This document shows, one piece after another, positions 4,174 to 62,611 of a stretch of DNA of 64,000 nucleotides. The DNA lies in contig JBAYKP010000003.1 of assembly GCA_041664465.1 (NCBI GenBank), positions 19,405 through 83,404 on the forward strand, in the 5' to 3' direction. A program made the position numbers and the translations under genes. Positions within the stretch are counted from its first letter, which is position 1; the number at the start of each line of letters is the position of its first letter. This DNA comes from Minisyncoccota bacterium (GTDB taxonomy: Bacteria > Patescibacteriota > Minisyncoccia > Phycocordibacterales > UBA9973). The notes under the pieces are model-generated. The model had not been told where the DNA came from. It made no database searches and saw only the letters and a list, made by a program, of their open reading frames with translations.

Positions 4174-5199
4174 ATGTCAAGTAAAGATAATACAACCAAA
4201 CACATTCGGGAAGAAGCCTCAGTGCACAGTAAGGATGAAGGCTTCTTAGACCAGACACTGCGTCCAGAGGTCTGGGAAGAGTATATTGGCCAAGAAAATA
4301 TCAAAGCCAATCTCAAAATTCTTCTAACTGCCGCCGAAGAGCGAAACCATCCTGCCGAGCATATCCTTTTCTATGGTCCACCAGGTCTTGGCAAGACTAC
4401 CTTGGCTCATTTGATAGCCAAAGAGACTCGTAGGCAAATTAAAATTACTTCCGGACCTGCCATAGAGAAAGTTGGAGACCTTGCTTCTATACTTACCAAT
4501 CTCGCCCCTGGTGATATTGTCTTCATAGATGAGATCCACCGTCTAAATAAAATGGTGGAAGAAATACTTTATCCAGCGATGGAGTCTGGTGTTTTAGATA
4601 TCATTATTGGTAAGGGTCCTTCAGCTCGTACTATTCAGCTTGAGCTCCCGCCTTTCACTCTTATTGCTGCTACTACCCGCATTGCTCTCCTCTCTTCCCC
4701 TCTTCGTTCACGTTTCTCTGGTGGAGTTTTTAGACTTGAATTCTATACCCACGATGAAATAAAAAAGATATTGGCTCGTTCGGCAAAAATATTGGGGGTA
4801 GAATTAGAAAGTGATGCATTGGATGAGATAGCCAAGCGCGCTCGTTTCACACCTCGTACTGCCAATTATTTCCTCAAGCGTTGTCGCGACTATGCACAAG
4901 TTCATAAATTGCCACTTTCTAAAGATGCAGTAAAGAAGGCTTTGGCTTTACTTGAAATAGATGAGATAGGTCTCTCTTCTTCTGATAGAAGAATCCTTGA
5001 AATAATAATCAACAAATTTAATGGCGGACCAGTCGGGCTTAAAACTATCTCAGCCGCTACAAGTGAAGAAGAGGCGACAATAGAAGAAGTCATAGAGCCA
5101 TACCTGATACAACTTGGGCTTCTCGAGCGTACTAGCCGTGGTAGAACCGTCACTAAAAAGGGTTATGAGCATTTAGGGTTTGATTTTATAGGAAAATAA
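4174..5199 (+). CDS. ruvB: Holliday junction branch migration helicase RuvB
   Basis: GPPGLGKTTLAHLIA Walker A, DEIHRL, winged-helix C-terminus; TGcTATAAT extended -10 at about 4115-4123 upstream. Confidence 0.9.
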   Translation: MSSKDNTTKHIREEASVHSKDEGFLDQTLRPEVWEEYIGQENIKANLKILLTAAEERNHPAEHILFYGPPGLGKTTLAHLIAKETRRQIKITSGPAIEKVGDLASILTNLAPGDIVFIDEIHRLNKMVEEILYPAMESGVLDIIIGKGPSARTIQLELPPFTLIAATTRIALLSSPLRSRFSGGVFRLEFYTHDEIKKILARSAKILGVELESDALDEIAKRARFTPRTANYFLKRCRDYAQVHKLPLSKDAVKKALALLEIDEIGLSSSDRRILEIIINKFNGGPVGLKTISAATSEEEATIEEVIEPYLIQLGLLERTSRGRTVTKKGYEHLGFDFIGK

Positions 5200-7184: not shown

Positions 7185-7222
7185 ATATTATCACATCTTT
7201 TGCTCTTTGTCCGTAGAATTTT

Positions 7223-7262
7223 TCCTCCCCTGTGAAGGGGAGGTGGCTCCTAGCCGGAGGGG
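7223..7262. repeat. hairpin repeat family 2, copy A (cctcccctgtgaaggggag gtggct..agcc ggagggg)
   Basis: matches the copies at 14797, 27419 and 62305; intergenic between tyrS and PBP; source of the spurious ORF 7171..7449. Confidence 0.5.
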
Positions 7263-7285
7263 TTTTTGTGTTATGATATATAAGT

Positions 7286-14332: not shown

Positions 14333-14794
14333 ATGGATCAAGAACTTGTAAAATCAATCATAGAAAATATTTTTACACATACAGCTTGTACTATTTCCAA
14401 GTGCGAACTATCCCTTGAAGATGGGATGCTTTGGTGTATGATTGAAACTCCAGATTCAAGATTTATGATTGGACGTGAAGGAGAGACCCTCAGATCCCTC
14501 AATCATTTAGTCCGTAAGATTGCTGAGAAGGCAAGTGGCACAGAAGAAATTTCTAATATCTTTGTGGATGTGAATGGATATCAAAAGAAAAGATTTGATA
14601 ATCTGAAAAATATTGCTCATATGATGGCCGAGAGAGCCCGCTATTTTAAGAGTAATATCGAGATTGATCCTATGCCTGCCAATGAACGTCGCATTGTTCA
14701 TATGTTCTTAGAGAAGATTCCAGATATTAAAACAGAATCAGAAGGCTATGGACCAGAGAGAAGAGTGGTAATTAAATATATAGGAAACAACTAA
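14333..14794 (+). CDS. khpB: Jag/KhpB R3H-domain RNA-binding protein
   Basis: KH-like fold plus R3H motif (ERRIVHMFL); canonical position after yidC. Confidence 0.75.
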   Translation: MDQELVKSIIENIFTHTACTISKCELSLEDGMLWCMIETPDSRFMIGREGETLRSLNHLVRKIAEKASGTEEISNIFVDVNGYQKKRFDNLKNIAHMMAERARYFKSNIEIDPMPANERRIVHMFLEKIPDIKTESEGYGPERRVVIKYIGNN

Positions 14795-14796
14795 AT

Positions 14797-14838
14797 CTCC
14801 CCCTGCTAAGGGGGAGTGCCTGAAAGGCGAGGGGGTCA
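14797..14838. repeat. hairpin repeat family 2, copy B
   Basis: ctccccctgctaagggggag tgcctgaaaggcga gggggtc; intergenic. Confidence 0.45.
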
Positions 14839-18531: not shown

Positions 18532-18560
18532 TATATAATATTTACCAAGTTATTGCATTT

Positions 18561-18654
18561 TCTCCCCTCCTTACCAAGGAGGGGACCAAGGAGAGGTTCT
18601 TAATTAATTAGGAACCTCTCCCTCCCCTCTCCTTAGTAAGGAGAGGAGCTAATT
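18561..18654. repeat. GC-rich palindromic repeat family 1, copy 2
   Basis: tctcccctccttaccaaggagggga...cttaattaattaggaacctctccc...ctccttagtaaggagagg; overlaps the VirB4 stop codon. Confidence 0.6.
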
Positions 18655-20478
18655 ACCACCCGACACAGCCAGATCATCCTTTGCTTTCTTAATAGCAAGG
18701 ATTTGAGATGGATCAGATGTGATAATTTGGTCTTCTGTATATGAAGCGATTGTCTTGATGGCTACGTGCTTGAGTCCAGCAAAGAATATTCCTTCTCCGA
18801 CATTGGCTTCGAGAAGTAGATACTTTTCTTCATCAGTAAGACTGAAAGTCTTCTGGAGGACATCAATAGTCGCTGGGGATTGCTTTAATAGAAGCTGAAT
18901 AGAAGAGTTCGTCACGATAGGCACGCCATAAGGGCTCTTCATAAAGTCCCCTACATCTTGGGTAATAGTAGCCAGACCTAGATAATATTTACGCCCTCTC
19001 TTAGCAATAGAATAAAGGAATGAAGCGGTATCTTCTGATTTCATCATCCACCAAGCTTCATCCACGACGAGTAATCGCTTCTTAAGATTTTTACGGACAG
19101 CATTCCAGATGAAGTGAGTGACTATATACATAGCCACAGGCTTGAGTTCATCTTCCATATCTCGCACAGAAAAGACGACGAATTTACGATTGATATCCAC
19201 ATTGGATGGTCTATTGATAAATGATGCCCAAGAACCGTGCGTATACTTCGCGATACGCTGTATTAGAGAGTTACTTCCCTCCATTCCAGCGAGGACAACT
19301 TCAAAGTCTGAAAGAAGTGGAGGTTCTATATTTGCAAAATTGGAAGATGCCGTTATGTCTTTCAGGGCATAAGTCTCTGTTATAGCTCGGTCTATGATGG
19401 AATCCTCTTCTGGCGTAAGTCCTCCGAGCATTATTCGGAATAATCCTACGAGGTTTATGGTATTGGAGCGGAGGACGTCGGCGGCTGTCTCATCCGGTCG
19501 TGGTATTGGTAGATCAAATGGGTTGATATGGTGGTCAGAGGAGAGGGCGATATTGAAATATCTACCACCTATGGCTTCTGCCAAGTATTCATATTCACGT
19601 TCAGGGTCTATGACAATAACTTCTGCATCAAACATAAGTGTACGGATAATTTCAAGCTTCGTGGCATAAGATTTACCAGCTCCAGCTGTGGCGAAAGTTA
19701 TAGAGTTGTAGTTTGGAAGAGAAAATCTGTCAAAAATGATAAGACTAGAGTTGTGCCTGTTCACTCCATAGAGAATTCCCTTATCTGAAGTCAAATCAAA
19801 TGAGACAAAAGGGAAAATACTTGAGAGAGGCTCTGTATCAAGCTTCTGATGAATTCCTAAAATATCAGTCCCCAGAGGAATAACACTTTTGAAGCCTTCA
19901 ACTTGTTGGAATAATGCTGGCTTCAAGTAGACAAGCTTAGAATCTAGAAGAGACTTCACCTCACTCTCTATTTTGAACAAATCATTTTCATTATCAGCAT
20001 AGACAGTAATATAAAGCCCCACATCAAACATTTTATTTTGAGCTTGCATTAGACTGTCACGCAAATTCTCGAGATCTTGGTAGGCAGTATCTAGCATCGG
20101 GTCGCGGACCAAACCTTTGGACTCACGGACAGATATTTGGCTTTGAACTTCCGCCACTTTCTTTTGGAAAGATCTTAGTATGTCGGCAGTTTCTATTGGG
20201 TGTATGAAGATAGAGACGTCAAAAATTTTGTCCAAGTTCACAATTGGTGAGAACCAATTATCCGTAAGATATCTAGGATAAGAAATGACGAAGAAAGTCC
20301 TCGCTATCTTATCTCCTAAATTTATAGACTTGGGGGTTATCTGAAGTGCCGAAGGTGCGATTACATCTTGGAGCTCAAGAGTGGCCGCTTTGTATATTTC
20401 GGTTGGCAAAACAGGCATAACGGTATTCGTCTGTTTTGATTTATTGCCCCCACTAAATATTGATGAAAATATTCCCAT
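18649..20478 (-). CDS. VirB4/TrbE/CagE-family T4SS ATPase, C-terminal part including the ATPase domain
   Basis: Walker A GAGKSY, Walker B hhhVVDEAW, family-typical central and C-terminal motifs. Confidence 0.75.
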   Translation of the reverse strand: MGIFSSIFSGGNKSKQTNTVMPVLPTEIYKAATLELQDVIAPSALQITPKSINLGDKIARTFFVISYPRYLTDNWFSPIVNLDKIFDVSIFIHPIETADILRSFQKKVAEVQSQISVRESKGLVRDPMLDTAYQDLENLRDSLMQAQNKMFDVGLYITVYADNENDLFKIESEVKSLLDSKLVYLKPALFQQVEGFKSVIPLGTDILGIHQKLDTEPLSSIFPFVSFDLTSDKGILYGVNRHNSSLIIFDRFSLPNYNSITFATAGAGKSYATKLEIIRTLMFDAEVIVIDPEREYEYLAEAIGGRYFNIALSSDHHINPFDLPIPRPDETAADVLRSNTINLVGLFRIMLGGLTPEEDSIIDRAITETYALKDITASSNFANIEPPLLSDFEVVLAGMEGSNSLIQRIAKYTHGSWASFINRPSNVDINRKFVVFSVRDMEDELKPVAMYIVTHFIWNAVRKNLKKRLLVVDEAWWMMKSEDTASFLYSIAKRGRKYYLGLATITQDVGDFMKSPYGVPIVTNSSIQLLLKQSPATIDVLQKTFSLTDEEKYLLLEANVGEGIFFAGLKHVAIKTIASYTEDQIITSDPSQILAIKKAKDDLAVSGGN

Positions 20479-33533: not shown

Positions 33534-34433
33534 CTAATTTTTTATAGAAAGATTGGATATTTCTATCCATTTTTCAAATTTGATATCCTCAGCTCTTGCC
33601 TTAGGATTTATATCTAATTTTTCAAATATTTCATCTATTTTATTTATATAAGGAAGTCCGACTTCCTTAATTTGTATGTTTGGAAGTCCGACTTCCAAAT
33701 TTTTACGGAGGACTTTTCTTTTATGAGCAAAGCCTGCTTTGATAAGTTGGAAGAATGAATCTTCTTCATTTTTATTTTTGAAAAATTTGTTGGAAATATC
33801 TCCTATGTGAATAATTGCCGAGTCCACCTTAGGAGCTGGGGAGAAGAATCTTTTATGAACTTTCATTATGTATTTTGGTGTGCTGAAAGCTTTCACGGAA
33901 AGAGAAAGAATACTTTCCTTCTCATCTCTTGCTACAATTCGCTCGGCTACCTCTTTCTGGACCAAGAGAGTCATACTGACAGGCTTTGGTTCTTCACTTA
34001 AAAATTTCCTAAGTATTAAACCGGTGATGTTGTAAGGAATGTTGGCGACTATCTTATAGGTATTAATTCCTCCCCTCCTTACTAAGGAGGGGACTGAGGG
34101 GAGGTTCTTAATTAATTCACCCCTCCCTAGCCCTCCCCTTAGTAAGGGGAGGGGATTAAAATTTAAAATATCTTCATTTAATAAAATTAGTTTTCCAGAT
34201 TTTATTTCTTCTGTGAATTTTTCATTAAGTATTTCTATCAAGTCGCGGTCTTTCTCAACCGCAATTACTTTCCTCGCTCTCTCTAAAAGTTTCTCTGTCA
34301 GTGCCCCCTTCCCTGGGCCAATTTCAACAACTATATCTTTATCATTCACACCACTCATCTCGCACATCTTGAAAAGCGCCTCTTTAGACTTCAAGAAATT
34401 CTGCCCCATACTTTTCTTTGCTTGATGAATCAT
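33534..34433 (-). CDS. rsmA: 16S rRNA (adenine1518/1519-N6) dimethyltransferase carrying an in-frame repeat insertion of about 32 aa
   Basis: MGQNFL, VEIGPGKGALT SAM motif, NIPYNI; the insert [32 protein letters not shown] is encoded by repeat family 1 copy 3. Confidence 0.8.
   Translation of the reverse strand: MIHQAKKSMGQNFLKSKEALFKMCEMSGVNDKDIVVEIGPGKGALTEKLLERARKVIAVEKDRDLIEILNEKFTEEIKSGKLILLNEDILNFNPLPLLRGGLGRGELIKNLPSVPSLVRRGGINTYKIVANIPYNITGLILRKFLSEEPKPVSMTLLVQKEVAERIVARDEKESILSLSVKAFSTPKYIMKVHKRFFSPAPKVDSAIIHIGDISNKFFKNKNEEDSFFQLIKAGFAHKRKVLRKNLEVGLPNIQIKEVGLPYINKIDEIFEKLDINPKARAEDIKFEKWIEISNLSIKN
34065..34157. repeat. GC-rich palindromic repeat family 1, copy 3, in frame inside rsmA
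   Basis: aattcctcccctccttactaaggaggggactgaggggaggttcttaattaatt...ccctccccttagtaaggggagggg. Confidence 0.6.
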
Positions 34434-34434
34434 A

Positions 34435-36372
34435 TTATAAGTATACTACCTTCTCTCCACCTTTTGAATAACTCTGCCTGAATTCTGTCAGGTGAACTGG
34501 GATGTCGTAGATGAATTCACTCGGAGTATTTACTTGTTTCATTCCGAAAATTGTACGCAATGTTGTATAAGTAAGGAAAAGTTTTTTCTCTGCTCTTGTG
34601 AGTGCCACATAGAAAAGTCTTCTCTCTTCCTCTTTATCTTCTTTCGTTCCCTGACCTGTTCTTGCATGTGGAAATAAATCTTGCTCAAGCCCCGTGACGA
34701 AGACATATTTGAATTCTAGCCCTTTCGATGCATGCACTGTCATCAATCTGACTCCGCCAGTTTTAGCTTTATTTATAAGGCTATCTTGGTCACTTGAAAG
34801 TGAAGCATCTTCTAAAAGTTTTTCTATTCCATTCTCCATTGTGTCATATTTTATGGCGAGAGTTACAAGCTCTTTCATATTTTCTAATCGTTCCATTTCT
34901 TCATTTGTACCATGCGAGAGTTCCTCTTCAAGTCCCGACTTCTCTATTATATATTTTATTATTTCAGATGGTTTATGCGTATCAATATACTCGTGAATAT
35001 TTTCTAATAATTCATAGAATTTATTTATTTTAATTTGCATTCCCGCTGGTAGTTCTGCGAACTGACCCGCGAAAAGTTTCGTGAGTGTCACCTTCCCTAC
35101 TCCACGAGCCGGAGTATTTATAATTCTTTTTATATCTGTTAGGCTTTCTTTATTCAAGCTTGCTTTAATATATGCGATGACATCTTTGATTTCTTTTCTC
35201 TCGAAAAATTTTACCCCAAGGACTTGGTAAGGAATTTGCCGAGAGAGCATTGCCTCTTCTAAGACGCGGGATTGAAAGTTCGCACGGTACAAGACTGCTA
35301 TATTCTCTGGTTTATTTTCTTTTAGGAGTTCATCTATTTCTTCCGCTACAAAATTTGCTTCTGATGTTTCATCATAAGCTTCGCAGACCACTATCTGCTC
35401 GCCATCTACATTTTTAGTAAATAAAGTTTTCGGTACTCTATACTGATTCTTCTCTATCACACTATTGGCAGCTTCTATTATCTTTCCTGTGGAGCGGTAA
35501 TTCTGCTCAAGCATCACAATCTTGGCATTCGGATAATCTTTTTCAAAACGAATCATGTTTTTAATGTTCGCTCCTCTCCATGAGTACACACATTGATCTT
35601 GATCCCCAACAATACAAATATTTTCATCTTTACTTACTAGAAGCTTCGTCATTTCATACTGCACTTCATTTGTATCTTGATACTCATCTATATGCACATA
35701 CTTCCACTTCTCTTGATATTTATTTTTAACCTCTGGAAACTTCCGCAAAATCATTACAGATTCCAAAAGTAAATCATCAAAATCAAGCCCTTTTTCATTT
35801 TTAAGTCTGGCTTCGTATCCACCCCAGACGAGGGCTACAATACTTTGCATGCTACTTTTCACCTCTCCTCTATAATTAGGAAGTGTAATAAAGTCACCTT
35901 TGGCTTTGGAAATAATACTTTTAATTTTCCTTGGCTCGTGTTGCTTCGGGTCTATATCGTGCTCTTTCATCACATCTTTGATAATAGAGATAGCGTCACT
36001 CTCGTCTATTATAGAGAAGTGCTTGGTAAGGCCTATCAGGTGGGCATTCTCTTTTATAATATGTACTCCAAGAGAATGAAAAGTAGAGACAAATGGAGTC
36101 CCCGCGCCAGAGCTTCGCTCTGGCGCACTTATCCCATGCCTTTTGTCTTCCAGTAGCATCATCACTCTATCTCGCATTTCCTTGGCAGCCTTATTTGTAA
36201 AGGTTACTGCCAGAATAGAAGAAGGATTCACTCCTTGATGTATCAAATGAATTATCCTGTGTGTTATCGTCTTCGTCTTCCCCGCCCCCGCCCCTGCTAC
36301 TATCAAAAGAGGCCCATCTGTATACAAGACTGCCTCTTTCTGTTTATCATTCAATTGCTCCAAATATTGCAT
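34435..36372 (-). CDS. uvrD: ATP-dependent DNA helicase UvrD/PcrA family
   Basis: GAGAGKTKT Walker A, DEYQDTN, QNYRST helicase motifs. Confidence 0.85.
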   Translation of the reverse strand: MQYLEQLNDKQKEAVLYTDGPLLIVAGAGAGKTKTITHRIIHLIHQGVNPSSILAVTFTNKAAKEMRDRVMMLLEDKRHGISAPERSSGAGTPFVSTFHSLGVHIIKENAHLIGLTKHFSIIDESDAISIIKDVMKEHDIDPKQHEPRKIKSIISKAKGDFITLPNYRGEVKSSMQSIVALVWGGYEARLKNEKGLDFDDLLLESVMILRKFPEVKNKYQEKWKYVHIDEYQDTNEVQYEMTKLLVSKDENICIVGDQDQCVYSWRGANIKNMIRFEKDYPNAKIVMLEQNYRSTGKIIEAANSVIEKNQYRVPKTLFTKNVDGEQIVVCEAYDETSEANFVAEEIDELLKENKPENIAVLYRANFQSRVLEEAMLSRQIPYQVLGVKFFERKEIKDVIAYIKASLNKESLTDIKRIINTPARGVGKVTLTKLFAGQFAELPAGMQIKINKFYELLENIHEYIDTHKPSEIIKYIIEKSGLEEELSHGTNEEMERLENMKELVTLAIKYDTMENGIEKLLEDASLSSDQDSLINKAKTGGVRLMTVHASKGLEFKYVFVTGLEQDLFPHARTGQGTKEDKEEERRLFYVALTRAEKKLFLTYTTLRTIFGMKQVNTPSEFIYDIPVHLTEFRQSYSKGGEKVVYL

Positions 36373-36395
36373 TCCCTTATTGTAGCATTTTATTT
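36305..36395. repeat. 91-bp direct repeat, copy 1 (native uvrD 5' end plus upstream region)
   Basis: near-identical to 37642-37732 (2 mismatches). Confidence 0.6.
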
Positions 36396-36406
36396 AATTT
36401 AATTCT

Positions 36407-37537
36407 TTAGTTATATTCTTCTAGATTCTCTAAATATTTTTCTGCATTTTTTATTTTTGCACCAGATTTAGAAACCCTCTCTGTTTGTAGATTATATACT
36501 ACTTGCGTACTTTCCACTTTGTATTTTTCTCTGAAATATTCCAAGGTTTTTGATATACTACTATCAGAAACTTTTGCTTCAATGATTTCTATTAAATTAT
36601 TTTCACTATCTGATAAGGCAAAGTCCACCTCTTTCTTTTCTTTGGTCTTTAAAAATCCGAGAGAATATGAGGCTCCATCTCTATCATTTTTTAATTTTAT
36701 ATGTTTATACAAAGCAAGTGCTACGAAGTTTTCGAATTTTGCACCAACATCATTTATCAAAGCATAATCAAAGAAATAAATTTTAGGTTCTTTTAAGATT
36801 GAACGAGAAATTTTATGAGTGTATGGTTTTATTATAAATATAATATATATTGCTTCCAATATCTCAATATATTTTTTTACCGTAATAGAAGAAATCCCTA
36901 TATCTCCTGCGATATTACTATAACTTATAGGTGAGCCTACTTTATTTTTCAAAGATTGATATACAAGACGAATAGCATTCACTTTATCTATATCTTGAAA
37001 TTCTAAAACATCTTGTCCCAGAAGACTCTCAGTATATAAACTACGCCAACGGTTTACATCTTCATTGTTGCTGGCTAGTAATGGCTCGGGGAACCCGCTT
37101 CTTTCCATTAGTAAGCTTGCAACATTCTCTATATCACTTCCTTTTAATTCACTCAGAGTAAATGGGAATAGATGGTGGACATAGAATCGTCCAGCCAGCG
37201 AATCCCCCACTTTTTTAAATGCATCCATTCTAGCACTTCCAGTCACTAGTATGTGTACTGATGAAGATTTTGTATCATATACTCCCTTTAAATAATTTTT
37301 CCATTTTGGCATTTTATGGATCTCATCAAACACAATTAGATCAACATCAGGGAGCCAAGCTTCTTTTCGAATTATTTCTCGATGGTCACTGTTATCATAA
37401 TTCAAATAAACAGGATTTTTATATTCCTTCATTATCTCTTTGGCCAGCCAAGTCTTCCCCACTTGTCGTGGTCCCACAATAAAGACCATTTTCTTTTGTA
37501 AATCGGAGAGTATTTTGTTGTATATTTTCCTTTTCAT
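36407..37537 (-). CDS. AAA+ ATPase with C-terminal DUF4143-like domain
   Basis: Walker A GPRQVGKT, Walker B LIVFDEIH; flanked by the 91-bp direct repeats. Confidence 0.7.
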   Translation of the reverse strand: MKRKIYNKILSDLQKKMVFIVGPRQVGKTWLAKEIMKEYKNPVYLNYDNSDHREIIRKEAWLPDVDLIVFDEIHKMPKWKNYLKGVYDTKSSSVHILVTGSARMDAFKKVGDSLAGRFYVHHLFPFTLSELKGSDIENVASLLMERSGFPEPLLASNNEDVNRWRSLYTESLLGQDVLEFQDIDKVNAIRLVYQSLKNKVGSPISYSNIAGDIGISSITVKKYIEILEAIYIIFIIKPYTHKISRSILKEPKIYFFDYALINDVGAKFENFVALALYKHIKLKNDRDGASYSLGFLKTKEKKEVDFALSDSENNLIEIIEAKVSDSSISKTLEYFREKYKVESTQVVYNLQTERVSKSGAKIKNAEKYLENLEEYN

Positions 37538-37641
37538 ATATTTATTATTATGAATTATACTTAAATCTCATATACGACTATTCTATACTACTATATAGAA
37601 TAGTCAAGACTATTCTATATTCTCCTTAATTTTAAACAAAA

Positions 37642-37732
37642 AAAAGAGGCCCATCTGTATACAAGACTGCCTCTTTCTGTTTATCATTCAATTGCTCCAA
37701 ATATTGCATTCTCCTATTGTAGCATTTTATTT
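37642..37732. repeat. 91-bp direct repeat, copy 2 (duplicate of the uvrD 5' end)
   Basis: near-identical to 36305-36395; overlaps the stop of ORF 37727..38035. Confidence 0.6.
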
Positions 37733-38035
37733 GCCTATTTCACTCATTATTTCAGCGCTTTCTTCTCTTAATTTCTCTGCCTCTTCTTTTACTATTTCAT
37801 CTAGATTGGGAACTTTTTCTGAAAGAAAACCAAATATGTTTTCTGGGTCTGGATTCTTTTCAATTAATTTTTCAAAAGTATCTTTATCTTCTTCTGAAAG
37901 TATGTCCAATACACGAAGCATTACTTCTTGATAAACGATAGCTCCAAGGCGCTCCATCGCTTCTTTTTGTTTTTCGACTGGTAAAGTATTGATACCTAGG
38001 ATAAGCACTATATTTTTATTTATATCATTAAACAT
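37727..38035 (-). CDS. small acidic hypothetical protein
   Basis: 102-aa helical Glu/Lys-rich ORF; 3' end overlaps repeat copy 2. Confidence 0.35.
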   Translation of the reverse strand: MFNDINKNIVLILGINTLPVEKQKEAMERLGAIVYQEVMLRVLDILSEEDKDTFEKLIEKNPDPENIFGFLSEKVPNLDEIVKEEAEKLREESAEIMSEIGK

Positions 38036-57910: not shown

Positions 57911-57945
57911 ATAGTAGCATAAAATCTTGGTAATTGCAAGGGGGT

Positions 57946-58043
57946 GTTCCCCCTCCCCTTACTAAGGGGAGGGTTGGGGAGGGGTTCCTAATTAATTAAG
58001 AACCTCCCCTCAATCCCCTCCTTGGTAAGGAGGGGAGGAATTA
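57946..58043. repeat. GC-rich palindromic repeat family 1, copy 4
   Basis: ccccctccccttactaaggggagggttggggaggggttcctaattaattaagaacctcccctcaatcccctccttggtaaggaggggaggaatt; rpsO/xerC intergenic. Confidence 0.6.
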
Positions 58044-61054: not shown

Positions 61055-62611
61055 TTATACCCCATGCTTTTTGTGTAATTTCTCAATTTCTTCTTTTTCT
61101 AGTTCATCCTTTTTCTCTTTTCCGCGTTCCCCTAGTGTTTTCAGCTCATCATCGCCGAGCATATCTAGGGAAGCGACTAATTCACTCAGATGCTCAGGAG
61201 TGTTTTTGGTGGGGTCGTCGAGGACTTCTTCGAGGAGGGCATTCAGAATCCATCCCATTCGGGGCCCAGGTTTCATGTGTAACACCTCCATCATATACTT
61301 GCCGTTAATAGCTAATTGACCGACGGAGATAGGATCACGGAGGACTTCTTCTATCATTGCATGATATTTGCGGAGTCTATAAGGGGTCTCTTTCTTCTTC
61401 ATTCCTACCCTATCGCACTCGCGAACATTCATAAGGTCCCAGATATTCTCCTTGCCGACATGCTGGACTACCCTTCTGACAGCCGAAAGTGTTATCTTCT
61501 CTGTATCTGAGAAGAACATATGGTTTCTCGTGAAACTAATCACCTTTTCTATAGTATTTCTAGGATATTTCAATCTTTCCATTATTTGCTTTGTCATTCT
61601 AGCTCCTATCACTTCGTGGCCGTAGAATGTATATTCTTTCTTGGTTCCTACCCTTCTAGACCTTGGCTTGCCTATATCGTGAAAGAGGGCTGAAAGACGA
61701 ACTTCCAAAGACCAGCCTTTATTTGCAGCATGATCGAGAGCATGAAGTAGATGCTCCCAAACATCATATATATGGGCACCTTTCTGCTCGCATCCTATAC
61801 CCTCTTCAAGTTCTGGAATTATATATTTGAGCAAATTAAGCTTTTGGAGTAAGCCTATTCCAGCGACTGGATTATCTGAGTTTATTATCTTTGTGAATTC
61901 ATCACGGATTCTTTCAAAAGATATATTCTTTATTAAACTTGAATTATCTACAATTGCCTGCATTGTTTCATATGAAACAGCAAAATCGAGTTGGACGGAG
62001 AATCGAATAGCTCGAAGCATACGTAAGGCATCTTCCCTAAATCTATCATTCGGGTTACCTACGGCTCTGATAACTTTGTCCTTTATGTCCTTTACACCAC
62101 CAAATAAATCTATAAGATGTCCGTTACTATGACTACCCTCCTTTGCCAAGGCTATGGCGGGCGAGTAAGCCAAAGCATTGATTGTAAAGTCTCGTCTTTT
62201 TAAATCATCTTCTATATTTTCACTGAAATTTACTTCGTCCGGATGGCGAAAATCGCTATATTTTGCTTCGGTTCTATAGGTTGTAACCTCAATTATTGTA
62301 TTTTCCTCCCCTGCTAAGGGGAGGTGGCTGTAAGCCGGAGGGGTCAAAGGGAGAACTATTCCAACGGTTCCAAATTTATTCTCATATATAGTCTTTTCAA
62401 ATAAAGGTATTATCCCCTCGGGTTTAGCATTTGTGGCTATATCCCAATCTTTTGGTTCCCTCTCTAATATTAGATCTCTTACACAGCCACCCACTAGAAA
62501 GGCCTCAAAACCTGCTTTTTTGAGTGTTTCCGTTACACGTGTAACATATTCTGGTATTTTTGACTTATCTATGTTTAGATGATTAGTCATAATATTTATA
62601 AAGTTAGTCAA
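61055..62611 (-). CDS. cca: CCA-adding tRNA nucleotidyltransferase / poly(A) polymerase family HD-domain protein, with a 16-aa in-frame repeat insertion
   Basis: GGCVRDLIL, RDFTINALAY head-domain motifs, HD domain; the insert PLTPPAYSHLPLAGEE is encoded by repeat family 2 copy D. Confidence 0.75.
   Translation of the reverse strand: MTNFINIMTNHLNIDKSKIPEYVTRVTETLKKAGFEAFLVGGCVRDLILEREPKDWDIATNAKPEGIIPLFEKTIYENKFGTVGIVLPLTPPAYSHLPLAGEENTIIEVTTYRTEAKYSDFRHPDEVNFSENIEDDLKRRDFTINALAYSPAIALAKEGSHSNGHLIDLFGGVKDIKDKVIRAVGNPNDRFREDALRMLRAIRFSVQLDFAVSYETMQAIVDNSSLIKNISFERIRDEFTKIINSDNPVAGIGLLQKLNLLKYIIPELEEGIGCEQKGAHIYDVWEHLLHALDHAANKGWSLEVRLSALFHDIGKPRSRRVGTKKEYTFYGHEVIGARMTKQIMERLKYPRNTIEKVISFTRNHMFFSDTEKITLSAVRRVVQHVGKENIWDLMNVRECDRVGMKKKETPYRLRKYHAMIEEVLRDPISVGQLAINGKYMMEVLHMKPGPRMGWILNALLEEVLDDPTKNTPEHLSELVASLDMLGDDELKTLGERGKEKKDELEKEEIEKLHKKHGV
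62305..62345. repeat. hairpin repeat family 2, copy D, in frame inside cca
   Basis: cctcccctgctaaggggag gtggctgtaagcc ggaggggtc. Confidence 0.5.

Follow-up and report, generated by a model that had tools for sequence, protein, structure and literature searches.

How did a lone ATPase gene come to lie between two copies of the start of uvrD? We examined this locus within a 64-kb stretch of DNA, hereafter the window. The host is a tiny groundwater bacterium belonging to Candidatus Paceibacterota (Patescibacteria). The features of the locus are listed in Table 1.

Table 1. Features of the DUF5663-ATPase-uvrD locus, in window coordinates.
Feature	Position	Strand	Description	Basis
uvrD/pcrA helicase gene	34435..36372	-	645 aa, intact	Pfam UvrD-helicase 288 bits, UvrD_C 235 bits
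Direct-repeat copy 1	36305..36395	-	uvrD side	Repeat search
Inserted cassette	36396..37641	-	1,246 bp	Repeat ends and alignment to empty site
ATPase gene	36407..37537	-	376 aa; AAA+ ATPase, winged helix, PD-(D/E)xK nuclease	Pfam, PADLOC
Operator	37576..37619	.	Minus-strand reading TATAGAATAGTC-TT-GACTATTCTATA-N6-TATAGAATAGTC	
uvrD' stub ORF	37632..37709	-	25 codons, MQYLEQLNDKQKEAVLYTDGPLFFV then stop	Product of duplication
Direct-repeat copy 2	37642..37732	-	DUF5663 side	Repeat search
DUF5663 gene	37727..38035	-	102 aa, upstream neighbour	ORF; Pfam PF18908 30.8 bits

A direct repeat across a gene boundary flanks the cassette

The DUF5663, ATPase and uvrD/pcrA genes are all encoded by the minus strand. 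The ATPase gene is enclosed by one pair of 91-nt direct repeats, which match at 89 of 91 bases (98%) with a spacing of 1337. A 68-nt core of the repeat, allowing up to three mismatches, occurs exactly twice in the window; shuffled sequences are expected to contain no copies. The pair is also the sole close-range long direct repeat of the window. Hence, the near-identical segments with two mismatches reported in the first-pass annotation are genuine. The repeat had been described there as the 5' end of uvrD plus upstream sequence. It does include the uvrD start. However, it spans the DUF5663/uvrD boundary and so comprises more than the uvrD 5' end.

Briefly, copy 2 consists of the last codon and stop of DUF5663 (AAA-TAA), a spacer with Shine-Dalgarno (SD) sequence AGGAGA, and uvrD codons 1-22 plus 2 nt. 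Copy 1 carries the SD sequence AAGGGA and the true uvrD start, and runs on into the intact uvrD gene, which starts MQYLEQLNDKQKEAVLYTDGPL. Both mismatches between the copies fall in the SD region. Because the boundary is duplicated, DUF5663 retains its stop codon while uvrD retains an SD sequence and start. Hence, both neighbours are intact and a short, dead uvrD stub remains upstream. Between the repeats, 104 nt of operator, promoter and leader precede the ATPase ORF, and a tail of 11 nt completes the cassette. A terminator scan of the minus strand between positions 36372 and 37537 predicted none. Hence, uvrD would now be transcribed by read-through from the cassette.

The name of the source contig begins k141_, which we take to be the MEGAHIT convention for a k-mer of 141. 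This exceeds the repeat length. Thus, with k inferred from the contig name, k-mers spanning flank, repeat and cassette must exist. In independent Logan data (k=31), a unitig of 1,327 nt begins 30 nt inside the repeat and finishes 51 nt into the repeat. These are exactly the ends expected if reads hold both junction types; a 1,337-bp circle would fit the k=31 graph equally well. All three genes are present in at least two assemblies, of 74.7 and 88.9 kb.

An empty site in a syntenic relative

The first-pass annotation had proposed comparing related uvrD loci, and this comparison revealed an empty site. Relative L096 shares nine genes in synteny with the host. DUF5663 is directly upstream of uvrD here too, the genes are 18 nt apart and there is no ATPase. 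Each repeat copy aligns to bases 4957-5069 of L096, which has no counterpart of the intervening 1.2 kb. UvrD is 91% identical in L096 and the host, with DNA identity of ~80%. Flanking DNA is 74-81% identical compared with 98% for the two repeat copies. The filled site has lost no base of the empty site, and the DUF5663-repeat and repeat-uvrD junctions are both preserved.

Altogether, the cassette is missing from two syntenic relatives with a UvrD identity of 91%. A survey of 120 UvrD homologues and 160 ATPase loci revealed no further copy linked to uvrD. The best reading of these alignments is that the insertion was recent and duplicative. Recent insertion of a single-gene cassette, as first suggested, is consistent with both the empty site and the 2% difference between repeats, set against ~20% for host DNA.

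The cassette encodes an ATPase with a predicted nuclease domain

The cassette protein belongs to the AAA_14/DUF4143 family, COG1373, which is PADLOC candidate PDC-S01. AAA_14 (PF13173) scored 100 bits (cut-off 27) across residues 15-131. The C-terminal DUF4143 domain (PF13635) scored 83.9 bits (cut-off 28.1). These matches agree with the first description of a DUF4143-type AAA ATPase with Walker A motif GPRQVGKT. Across 27 homologues this motif and D71/E72 are invariant, as are the PD-(D/E)xK catalytic residues D305, E320 and K322, all intact here. The PDC-S01 profile PDLC04789 covers residues 2-351 (E = 2.2e-55). DUF4143 has been classed as a PD-(D/E)XK family (PMC3424549). We found no sequence-level homology between the ATPase and solved structures. 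The structure model (pLDDT 88.9) resembles RuvB, Orc1/Cdc6, PAB2304 and MuB, with Foldseek E values of 2e-7 to 4e-5 for the predicted fold between residues 1 and ~240. We infer that the product is an NTP-dependent DNA nuclease of defence or selfish type.

PDC-S01 ranks as the fourth most common 'defence' system (PMC12988326) and COG1373 is among genes shared by horizontal transfer (PMC10782964). The defence role is a candidate one that stems from genomic embedding, and a single PDC-S01 member assayed in E. coli B did not protect against T4, T5 or T7 (bioRxiv 10.1101/2024.09.26.614923). The family is present on 345 plasmid records, and no relatives of the ATPase were found in IMG/VR viral contigs. 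Among 5.8 billion proteins, the best non-self match was 86% identical and no cassette exceeded this value.

Conserved palindromes overlap the predicted promoter

The sequence GACTATTCTATA occurs three times upstream of the ATPase gene: at 37576-37587 (plus strand), 37594-37605 (minus strand) and 37608-37619 (plus strand). Only 0.7 matches are expected with up to one mismatch. Hence, the operator-like inverted repeat with a third half-site, noticed at the outset, is upheld. The operator comprises the right half of one unit (A) and a second, complete unit (B). The best promoter match is TTGACT-16-TAGAAT. The two units join at the -35 element, TTGACT (37607-37602), and the -10 element, TAGAAT, is at 37585-37580.

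The GTCTTGAC core was detected in 95 of 139 homologous upstream regions compared with 52 of 2,780 control windows. It is conserved across phyla, mostly 34-36 nt from the ATG. The half-site variant differs between lineages yet is common to all sites within one locus. We conclude that the operator consists of two conserved 12-N6-12 palindromes in tandem, within which the predicted promoter lies. Palindromes that overlap the -35 and -10 elements, with constant spacing to the start codon, are the arrangement by which an autoregulated gene would be recognised. The ATPase protein probably binds the two palindromes and so represses its own expression. At cassette 3' ends, operator half-sites are absent from 91 of 94 loci, equal to controls.

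Long gene-end duplications recur around the family

Close homologues of the cassette (64-86% amino acid identity) occupy at least ten other contexts. Independent insertions around the ATPase are flanked by duplications of a gene end, 72-193 nt long. The duplications are of an epimerase 5' end (72 nt, 92% identical; L008/L100), the rplB 3' end with its terminator (101 nt, 85%; L181), and the 3' ends of the genes for RACo (109 nt; L073), T2SSE (110 nt, 96%; L023) and Exo_endo_phos (193 nt, 85%; L056). In total, the ATPase is enclosed by seven independent duplications, and other cassettes with flanking duplications occur within ~1.6 kb of it. The duplications range from 45 to 313 nt and each includes a gene terminus. 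A 56-nt internal copy of ksgA, at L046, fits no simple model. Neighbouring cassettes at L149, L075 and L088, which have no ATPase, bear duplications of the same kind. At L149, these form a nested array of cassettes separated by gene-end copies.

Most homologous loci have no flanking repeat, and these may be old or derive from another route. The survey took in loci centred on the ATPase, and the link between duplications and this family may thus be an ascertainment effect. Long gene-end duplications recur around the family across several phyla of bacteria.

In three independent events (the window locus, L008 and L181), the cassette starts 4-19 nt ahead of the operator and ends 0-11 nt past the stop codon. 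In other phyla, the inserts hold extra genes and DNA. The targets are unrelated in sequence and share no core. Hence, the insertion target is not sequence-specific. The insertion had initially been thought site-specific; this did not hold, since homologous cassettes have similarly long duplications at unrelated targets, with no shared core and no recombinase.

We also compared the cassette with defined classes of element. Like an insertion sequence, it has a flanking duplication, of 91 nt, and an empty site in a relative. The ATPase is the only ORF of the insert, with AAA-type and DUF4143 Pfam matches, and no known transposase (DDE, HUH, tyrosine or serine recombinase) is encoded. Neither terminal inverted repeats nor two-end recognition sites were found, and the cassette ends are not conserved across loci. 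In the window, the cassette is single copy, with no near-identical copies. A site-specific integrative element was rejected because the 1,246-bp insert has no integrase and the targets no common att core. The filled site retains both empty-site junctions intact, unlike that of a homing endonuclease gene, the insertion of which interrupts the recognition site. An integron cassette is also unlikely: the palindrome is upstream with the promoter, nothing follows the stop codon and no integrase is among the neighbouring genes listed.

Possible routes of insertion

Our preferred interpretation is that a compact, autoregulated accessory-gene cassette was recently inserted at the DUF5663/uvrD boundary, probably with de novo duplication of the target and no site-specific recombinase. 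The target duplication could arise from breaks staggered ~50-300 nt apart. Alternatively, a replication template switch could copy the cassette and then re-prime upstream. Neither route would imply a site-specific recombinase. In gene-dense genomes, only insertions that duplicate across a gene end would survive. Afterwards, the 91-bp repeats might permit precise excision and re-integration by RecA-type recombination. Points against this explanation are the tight cassette limits, which unguided template switching does not predict, the lack of a flanking repeat at most homologous loci, the possible ascertainment effect and the ksgA copy at L046.

An alternative that we consider unlikely is Campbell-type integration. 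Here, circular or concatemeric DNA with the cassette and a copy of the uvrD 5' end would have recombined homologously into the resident uvrD 5' region. Such DNA might have entered from a related strain, or have been released at an earlier time by repeat recombination. A single crossover puts the 91-bp homology on both sides, and an intact gene results only if the homology extends over a gene end. The duplications, at 45-313 nt, are within reach of RecA-type recombination. They always include a gene terminus, a feature shared with insertion-duplication mutagenesis in the laboratory. Successive integrations would account for the nested array at L149, the circle compatible with the k=31 graph fits equally, and the two mismatches cluster at one repeat end, the pattern expected of a crossover between alleles that differ slightly. 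However, the donor must already hold the cassette beside each of at least five different target genes. Random fragment ends should also bring extra donor DNA, yet the far end of the insert is within 20 nt of the functional limit at the window locus, L008 and L181. A circle from an older site should carry the repeat of that site, and none was seen. The absence of any cassette above 86% identity among 5.8 billion proteins also counts against this route.

Still more doubtful is an autonomous element of a new kind. In this case, the AAA+/PD-(D/E)xK protein would recognise the operator end and make widely staggered cuts at gene boundaries, generating the ~50-300 bp duplications. The defined cassette limits in independent events point this way, as do predicted binding sites exactly at the cassette 5' edge and the seven independent duplications around the ATPase, with others within ~1.6 kb. 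According to the structure model, a DNA-binding winged helix, a MuB/Orc1-like AAA+ oligomerising module and an intact nuclease may be combined in one protein. Conversely, the 3' end has no recognition site and terminal inverted repeats are absent. The gene is single copy with no near-identical copies anywhere, inserts in other phyla bring extra genes and DNA, and neighbouring cassettes lacking the ATPase show the same duplications. Moreover, we know of no transposase with only a PD-(D/E)xK nuclease. If the element were autonomous, DUF4143/PDC-S01 genes would not be (only) defence genes. Instead, they would be minimal selfish elements whose own protein drives duplicative insertion at gene boundaries, and we hold this to be similarly improbable. 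The insertion sequences IS1549/IS1634, with repeats of 8-514 bp, provide a precedent for long duplications (PMC2266710).

Very improbable is an ancient, vertically inherited architecture in which gene conversion kept the repeats alike and the 'empty' relative lost the cassette by repeat recombination. The epimerase junction is common to lineages with ATPase DNA ~80% identical, yet the L008 repeat is 92% identical. Hence, such repeats can persist. In addition, ATPase divergence between contexts (66-86% nucleotide identity) resembles host divergence. Against this stand the two cassette-free relatives and the lack of a second uvrD-linked copy in the UvrD and ATPase surveys, and a recent event is the simplest explanation for 98% identity across a non-coding stub. 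Finally, the source is metagenomic and the k=31 graph cannot separate a true insertion from an empty-site chromosome joined by the assembler to a separate 1.3-kb circle or another strain, but such an artefact is extremely improbable given the inferred k of 141, the multiple assemblies, repeat copies differing at two positions, consistent with separate contexts, and the same architecture at other targets in unrelated assemblies.

Implications and comparison with known systems

Few uncharacterised accessory genes of bacteria and archaea are as abundant as those of AAA_14/DUF4143 (PDC-S01), which are filed as candidate defence systems on context alone. The clean empty site defines the unit as operator, promoter and ORF, ~1.25 kb in all, and predicts autoregulation via two palindromes. 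Long gene-end duplications would let the gene enter compact operons, even by rplB or uvrD, with neighbours unharmed, and leave repeats long enough for precise excision. If general, the pattern would represent a way of gaining genes that has gone unrecognised in streamlined genomes, such as those of Patescibacteria, chlamydiae and Legionellales-like bacteria. Should the ATPase-nuclease be the cause, this would be a new type of mobile element, with transposition chemistry that uses no DDE, HUH, tyrosine or serine enzyme. Were the selfish-element reading true, it could explain why the family is so common as an 'orphan' accessory gene and why small cassettes gather beside the ATPase.

The cassette protein resembles PDC-S01/COG1373 in its full-length match, its occurrence as a lone gene and its fusion of ATPase to PD-(D/E)xK domain; members of the family occur widely and are transferred horizontally. 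In the literature searched, we found no description of an operator, cassette limits or flanking target duplications for these genes. Hence, the gene family is known but its mode of insertion appears undescribed. Orc1/Cdc6, RuvB, MuB and PAB2304 share the predicted AAA+ winged-helix fold and, by analogy, archaeal orc1/cdc6 genes adjoin inverted repeats that their products probably bind. The ATPase differs in its additional C-terminal nuclease domain, and there is no evidence for a function in replication or branch migration.

Free-standing homing endonuclease genes are also compact nuclease genes with their own promoter, placed among conserved genes, as the cassette is even beside rplB (L181). 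However, homing makes no target duplications, and insertion of the cassette destroys no recognition site. Campbell integration in naturally transformable bacteria, and MMBIR/FoSTeS, produce inserts with variable target duplication and no dedicated recombinase, as observed here. We know of no report of either process as the way in which a given gene family spreads in nature, and tight cassette limits are not predicted by either.

Insertion of IS1549/IS1634 yields long direct repeats of variable length, as for the cassette, and no mechanism has been proposed (PMC2266710). IS1634-family elements differ in having a DDE transposase, terminal inverted repeats and multiple copies; the cassette has none of these and its sole protein is the AAA+/PD-(D/E)xK ATPase. 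Elements that integrate at gene ends (tRNA or 3'-end islands, CIMEs and SCC-like elements) differ from the cassette, which has targets with no shared core, a length of only ~1.2 kb and duplications of either the 5' or 3' gene end; no recombinase of the tyrosine or serine type lies within or close to the insert. In both cases, the repeats correspond to a host gene end and the gene stays intact. Tandem accretion of such elements gives arrays of cassettes between gene-end copies, as seen at L149.

An ATPase gene lies between direct repeats at the uvrD locus

The first-pass annotation had placed a DUF4143-type AAA ATPase gene between near-identical 91-bp repeats with two mismatches. Both parts of this description were borne out. 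A repeat search of the window placed the copies 1,337 nt apart and found them identical at 89 of 91 positions, and profile searches assigned the enclosed ORF to AAA_14 and DUF4143. The 68-nt identical core of the repeat occurs exactly twice in the 64-kb window and not in shuffled sequence; no other close-range long direct repeats were found in the window. On the minus strand, the order is the DUF5663 gene, copy 2, a palindromic site, the 376-aa ORF, copy 1 and uvrD/pcrA. The repeat comprises the last codon and stop of the DUF5663 gene, a spacer with a Shine-Dalgarno sequence, and uvrD through codon 22 (plus 2 nt). Both mismatches are in the Shine-Dalgarno region. At present, the upstream copy encodes a 25-codon stub. 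No terminator-like site was predicted between the ATPase gene and uvrD. Hence, uvrD is probably transcribed both from upstream and from a putatively autoregulated promoter in the cassette.

Features of the uvrD locus and dispersed palindromic repeats in the window
Feature	Position	Strand	Evidence or content
DUF5663 gene	37727-38035	minus	ORF and Pfam; small gene upstream of the cassette
Repeat copy 2	37642-37732	minus	between DUF5663 and the palindromic site
Palindromic site	37576-37619		GACTATTCTATA motif three times
ATPase ORF, 376 aa	36407-37537	minus	Pfam AAA_14 (100 bits) and DUF4143 (84 bits)
Repeat copy 1	36305-36395	minus	between the ATPase and the uvrD body
uvrD/pcrA	34435-36372	minus	Pfam UvrD-helicase and UvrD_C
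GC-rich palindromic repeats	34067-34152, 2097-2200, 18552-18655, 57940-58043		CCCCTCCTTACTAAGGAGGGG...
Second palindromic repeat family	7220-7263, 14793-14836, 62301-62344		

The uvrD gene of the window has no intein. Several close UvrD/PcrA homologues in this clade (P0129, P0148, P0155, P0181, P0224 and P0240) are ~1,010-1,030 aa long and carry an intein domain (PF14890). Separately, one of the dispersed GC-rich palindromic repeats (34067-34152) is embedded in frame within ksgA/RrnaAD (33534-34433, minus). This copy adds 23 aa (stretch LLRGGLGRGELIKNLPSVPSLVRRGG), an insertion that the orthologue in a related genome (locus L096) lacks. It resembles Rickettsia palindromic elements, which insert into coding sequence.

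The insertion is younger than the split from the nearest relatives

Loci from other genomes and metagenomes are given L-numbers. The nearest UvrD homologues are 91% identical. One of these, at L096, shares the gene order of the window on both sides, but its gap between DUF5663 and uvrD is only 18 nt and contains no ATPase gene. L095, from a second relative, also has uvrD without the ATPase. The window and L096 are colinear at 74-81% identity (BLASTN), and each copy of the repeat aligns with L096 bases 4957-5069. In a three-way alignment, the sequence to the left of copy 2 and that to the right of copy 1 both match L096. On these comparisons, the 1,246 bp at 36396-37641 are an insertion. The two repeat copies have diverged by 2%, compared with ~20% for host DNA. 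By this measure, the insertion is much younger than the split from the L096 and L095 relatives.

Assembly data were also inspected. The exact ATPase, DUF5663 and UvrD proteins occur together on an ENA MEGAHIT contig (k141_1474732, 74.7 kb); an 88.9-kb contig is a second database record. In MEGAHIT contig names, k141 denotes a k of 141. This is longer than the repeat, so the junctions should rest on k-mers that span it. An independent Logan unitig (k = 31) of 1,327 nt begins 30 nt within one repeat copy and extends 51 nt into the other, exactly as expected from a repeated 91-mer with two early mismatches. The k = 31 graph would equally fit an empty site accompanied by a 1,337-bp circle.

The cassette is defined and carries a conserved operator

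Homologues of the ATPase (64-86% amino-acid identity) occupy many gene contexts. Some are enclosed by two genes, either Wzy_C and an epimerase or wzm-like and wzt-like ABC genes. Others precede GT2 and GT11 genes, follow an M23 peptidase gene or polA-like genes, adjoin toxin-antitoxin-like arrays, or come directly after rplB in a tuf-S10-L3-L4-L23-L2 cluster. Between contexts, DNA identity of the ATPase gene is 64-86%, which indicates that no recent donor has been sampled. Homology between cassettes begins a few bases before the operator and stops 0-11 nt past the stop codon. The cassettes have no terminal inverted repeats. Operator half-sites from -40 to +120 nt around the stop codon were no more frequent than in controls across 94 loci, except at three Cloacimonadota loci.

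An operator-like inverted repeat upstream of the ATPase gene had been noted from the window alone. Consistent with this, upstream regions of homologues contain two tandem 12-N6-12 palindromes (e.g. GACTATTCTGCA-N6-TGCAGAATAGTC). These are joined by TT, creating the junction TTGACT, which is the -35 box; the -10 box lies within the second unit. Of 139 distinct upstream regions, 95 contained the GTCTTGAC core, mostly 34-36 nt ahead of the ATG; among control windows, the count was 52 of 2,780. In our window, the left half of the first palindrome unit is degenerate and marks the cassette edge. Outer half-site bases vary between lineages and agree among sites of one locus. Such a pattern would be expected for a co-evolving protein-operator pair. 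We infer that the winged helix of the ATPase binds the palindromes and represses its own gene.

Several loci have variant arrangements. In Cloacimonadota, L030 (4934-4998/6121-6185), and likewise L093 and L094, has a complete second tandem operator/promoter directly after the ATPase stop, with no obvious homologous gene following. This may be a tandem-cassette remnant or may serve a regulated downstream gene. L103 and L105 (JGI Ga0163144 and Ga0163151) contain a variant cassette without the palindromic operator (ATPase at 4001-5161 in L105), 20 nt after a GIY-YIG-like 91-aa gene. Here, the ATPase ORF is extended and runs 35 nt into the start of a GT11 fucosyltransferase-like gene. At L097 (780-4000, JGI Ga0208373_1008796), four small toxin-antitoxin-like cassettes of two genes each form an array that ends with the closest homologue (86%). 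A boundary module of 100-190 nt (GGTTAATACGCC...CTTAAAAAGTATTC, hairpin, terminator) is repeated after each cassette. The same module also comes after the ATPase at L102 (113-137/1507-1531) and L164 (692-746/1331-1385). No Rfam-type RNA family reached gathering score in the modules of L097, L102, L149 and L164.

The ATPase belongs to a known family with a nuclease motif

The ATPase matches the PADLOC candidate model PDC-S01 (E = 2e-55); the gene family is already known. An NCBIfam search gave neither a name nor a meaningful match, and no sequence relatives were found among solved structures. The Walker A motif, D71/E72, D305, E320 and K322 are invariant across 27 aligned homologues. The last three residues form the PD-(D/E)xK motif of DUF4143, which is listed as a nuclease-fold family of unknown function (PMC3424549). 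The AlphaFold model (pLDDT 88.9, pTM 0.90) resembles the winged-helix AAA+ proteins RuvB, Orc1/Cdc6, PAB2304 and MuB. Among prokaryotic 'defence' systems, PDC-S01 has been ranked fourth in abundance, as a candidate only (PMC12988326). In E. coli, one member that was tested failed to protect against T4, T5 or T7 (10.1101/2024.09.26.614923). Viral contigs (IMG/VR) yielded no relatives, and family members were found on 345 plasmid records. The context on a Rhabdochlamydia plasmid gave no information on the insertion mechanism. At L109, the cassette is followed 148 nt downstream by a divergent AAA_14-type paralogue (1838-2974, 378 aa), placing two members in tandem.

Long gene-end duplications recur

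For each ATPase, we compared 500 nt upstream with 500 nt downstream; we also ran a self-BLAST of 149 non-redundant loci (1.13 Mb), and kept two-copy, non-hairpin repeats enclosing the ATPase. The duplicated targets were the first 24 codons of a downstream epimerase gene (L008/L100; 72 nt, 92%), the last ~55 nt of rplB with its terminator hairpin (L181; 101 nt, 85%), the 3' end of a RACo gene (L073; 109 nt, 89%), and the 3' ends of convergent T2SSE (L023; 110 nt, 96%) and Exo_endo_phos (L056; 193 nt, 85%) genes. The L056 insert also has a 586-aa ORF. At L181 (3022-5640, ENA ERZ19032037 scaffold_4932), rplB is followed immediately by an 85%-identical cassette and then, in place of rpsS, by a 107-aa ORF of unknown function. 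Decayed epimerase 5' fragments flank the ATPase on both sides at L015 and L180, and a fragment encoding the M23 C-terminus follows it at L109. Displaced control regions gave nothing comparable. Most loci have no flanking repeat. Decay of the useless copy would lead to this, and such loci may also have arisen by another route. Some flanking repeats were rejected as target duplications: those of L016, L015 and L171 are multicopy hairpin MITE/REP-like elements, that of L130 reflects tandem paralogues, and those of L030, L093 and L094 are the second operator copy.

Neighbouring cassettes bear the same signature. At L149 (5162-7822, JGI Ga0207036_10003), two successive inserts are set apart by copies (~45 and ~280-313 nt) of an acyltransferase gene 3' end, which start 40 nt after the ATPase stop. 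The order is ATPase, 95-nt copy, 331-aa ORF, 278-nt copy, two small overlapping ORFs and the true 3' end. This nested array fits two successive duplicative insertions, of ~313 and ~45 nt. 'Kinase' and 'toxin-antitoxin' labels for the 331-aa ORF and the small paired ORFs were dropped for want of a Pfam match. At L075 (2647-3787), a 126-aa ORF without a Pfam match is enclosed by a 205-nt duplication (97%) of the 3' end of a UvrD/PcrA helicase gene. An ATPase homologue follows 1.2 kb downstream. The locus is a second case with a UvrD-family gene end as target. At L088, a 46-nt repeat surrounds two small ORFs. Thus, the duplication signature reaches beyond the ATPase as cargo, in a set where every locus was selected for carrying the ATPase and a general route is inseparable from one promoted by it.

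In a Methylococcales MAG (L046, 4059-4114/6318-6373), a 56-nt, 100% copy of an internal piece of ksgA lies 200 nt downstream of the ATPase; the upstream ksgA gene is intact. This copy fits neither simple target duplication nor Campbell-type integration and may be templated filler DNA.

Mechanism of insertion and comparison with known systems

The analysis confirms the finding, and the first-pass interpretation, recent insertion or duplication-mediated capture of a single-gene cassette, holds in its core. Site specificity is the exception: the targets are unrelated and have no common core, and the insert encodes no recombinase, ruling out a site-specific recombinase. Classical homing by a homing endonuclease was rejected because the duplication keeps every base of the empty site. 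Campbell-type integration would yield an identical product if the integrating circle bore a copy of the target gene end, and it would account for a gene end always being included. It requires a donor with the cassette beside each target and, if fragment ends were random, extra donor DNA would be expected. In three independent events in the clade, the far end of the insert instead coincides with the functional cassette limit to within 20 nt.

We favour duplication made at the target during insertion. Widely staggered breaks or a replication template switch would generate the repeat, and selection would keep only events where the duplicated stretch spans the gene boundary. No convincing common motif was found at the in-gene ends of the duplications (n ~6, no donor sequence). 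The encoded ATPase-nuclease, with putative binding sites at the cassette 5' edge, is the obvious suspect for defining the cassette ends. Recombination of the recA type between the 91-bp repeats would also allow the cassette to excise precisely and re-integrate, so that the insertion would be reversible.

We found no description of the defined cassette, conserved operator or recurrent long gene-end duplications in the searchable literature. The insertion sequences IS1549 and IS1634 offer a precedent, in that their direct repeats measure 8-514 bp and arise by an unknown mechanism (PMC2266710). However, these elements have DDE transposases and inverted ends, whereas the cassette has no terminal inverted repeats.
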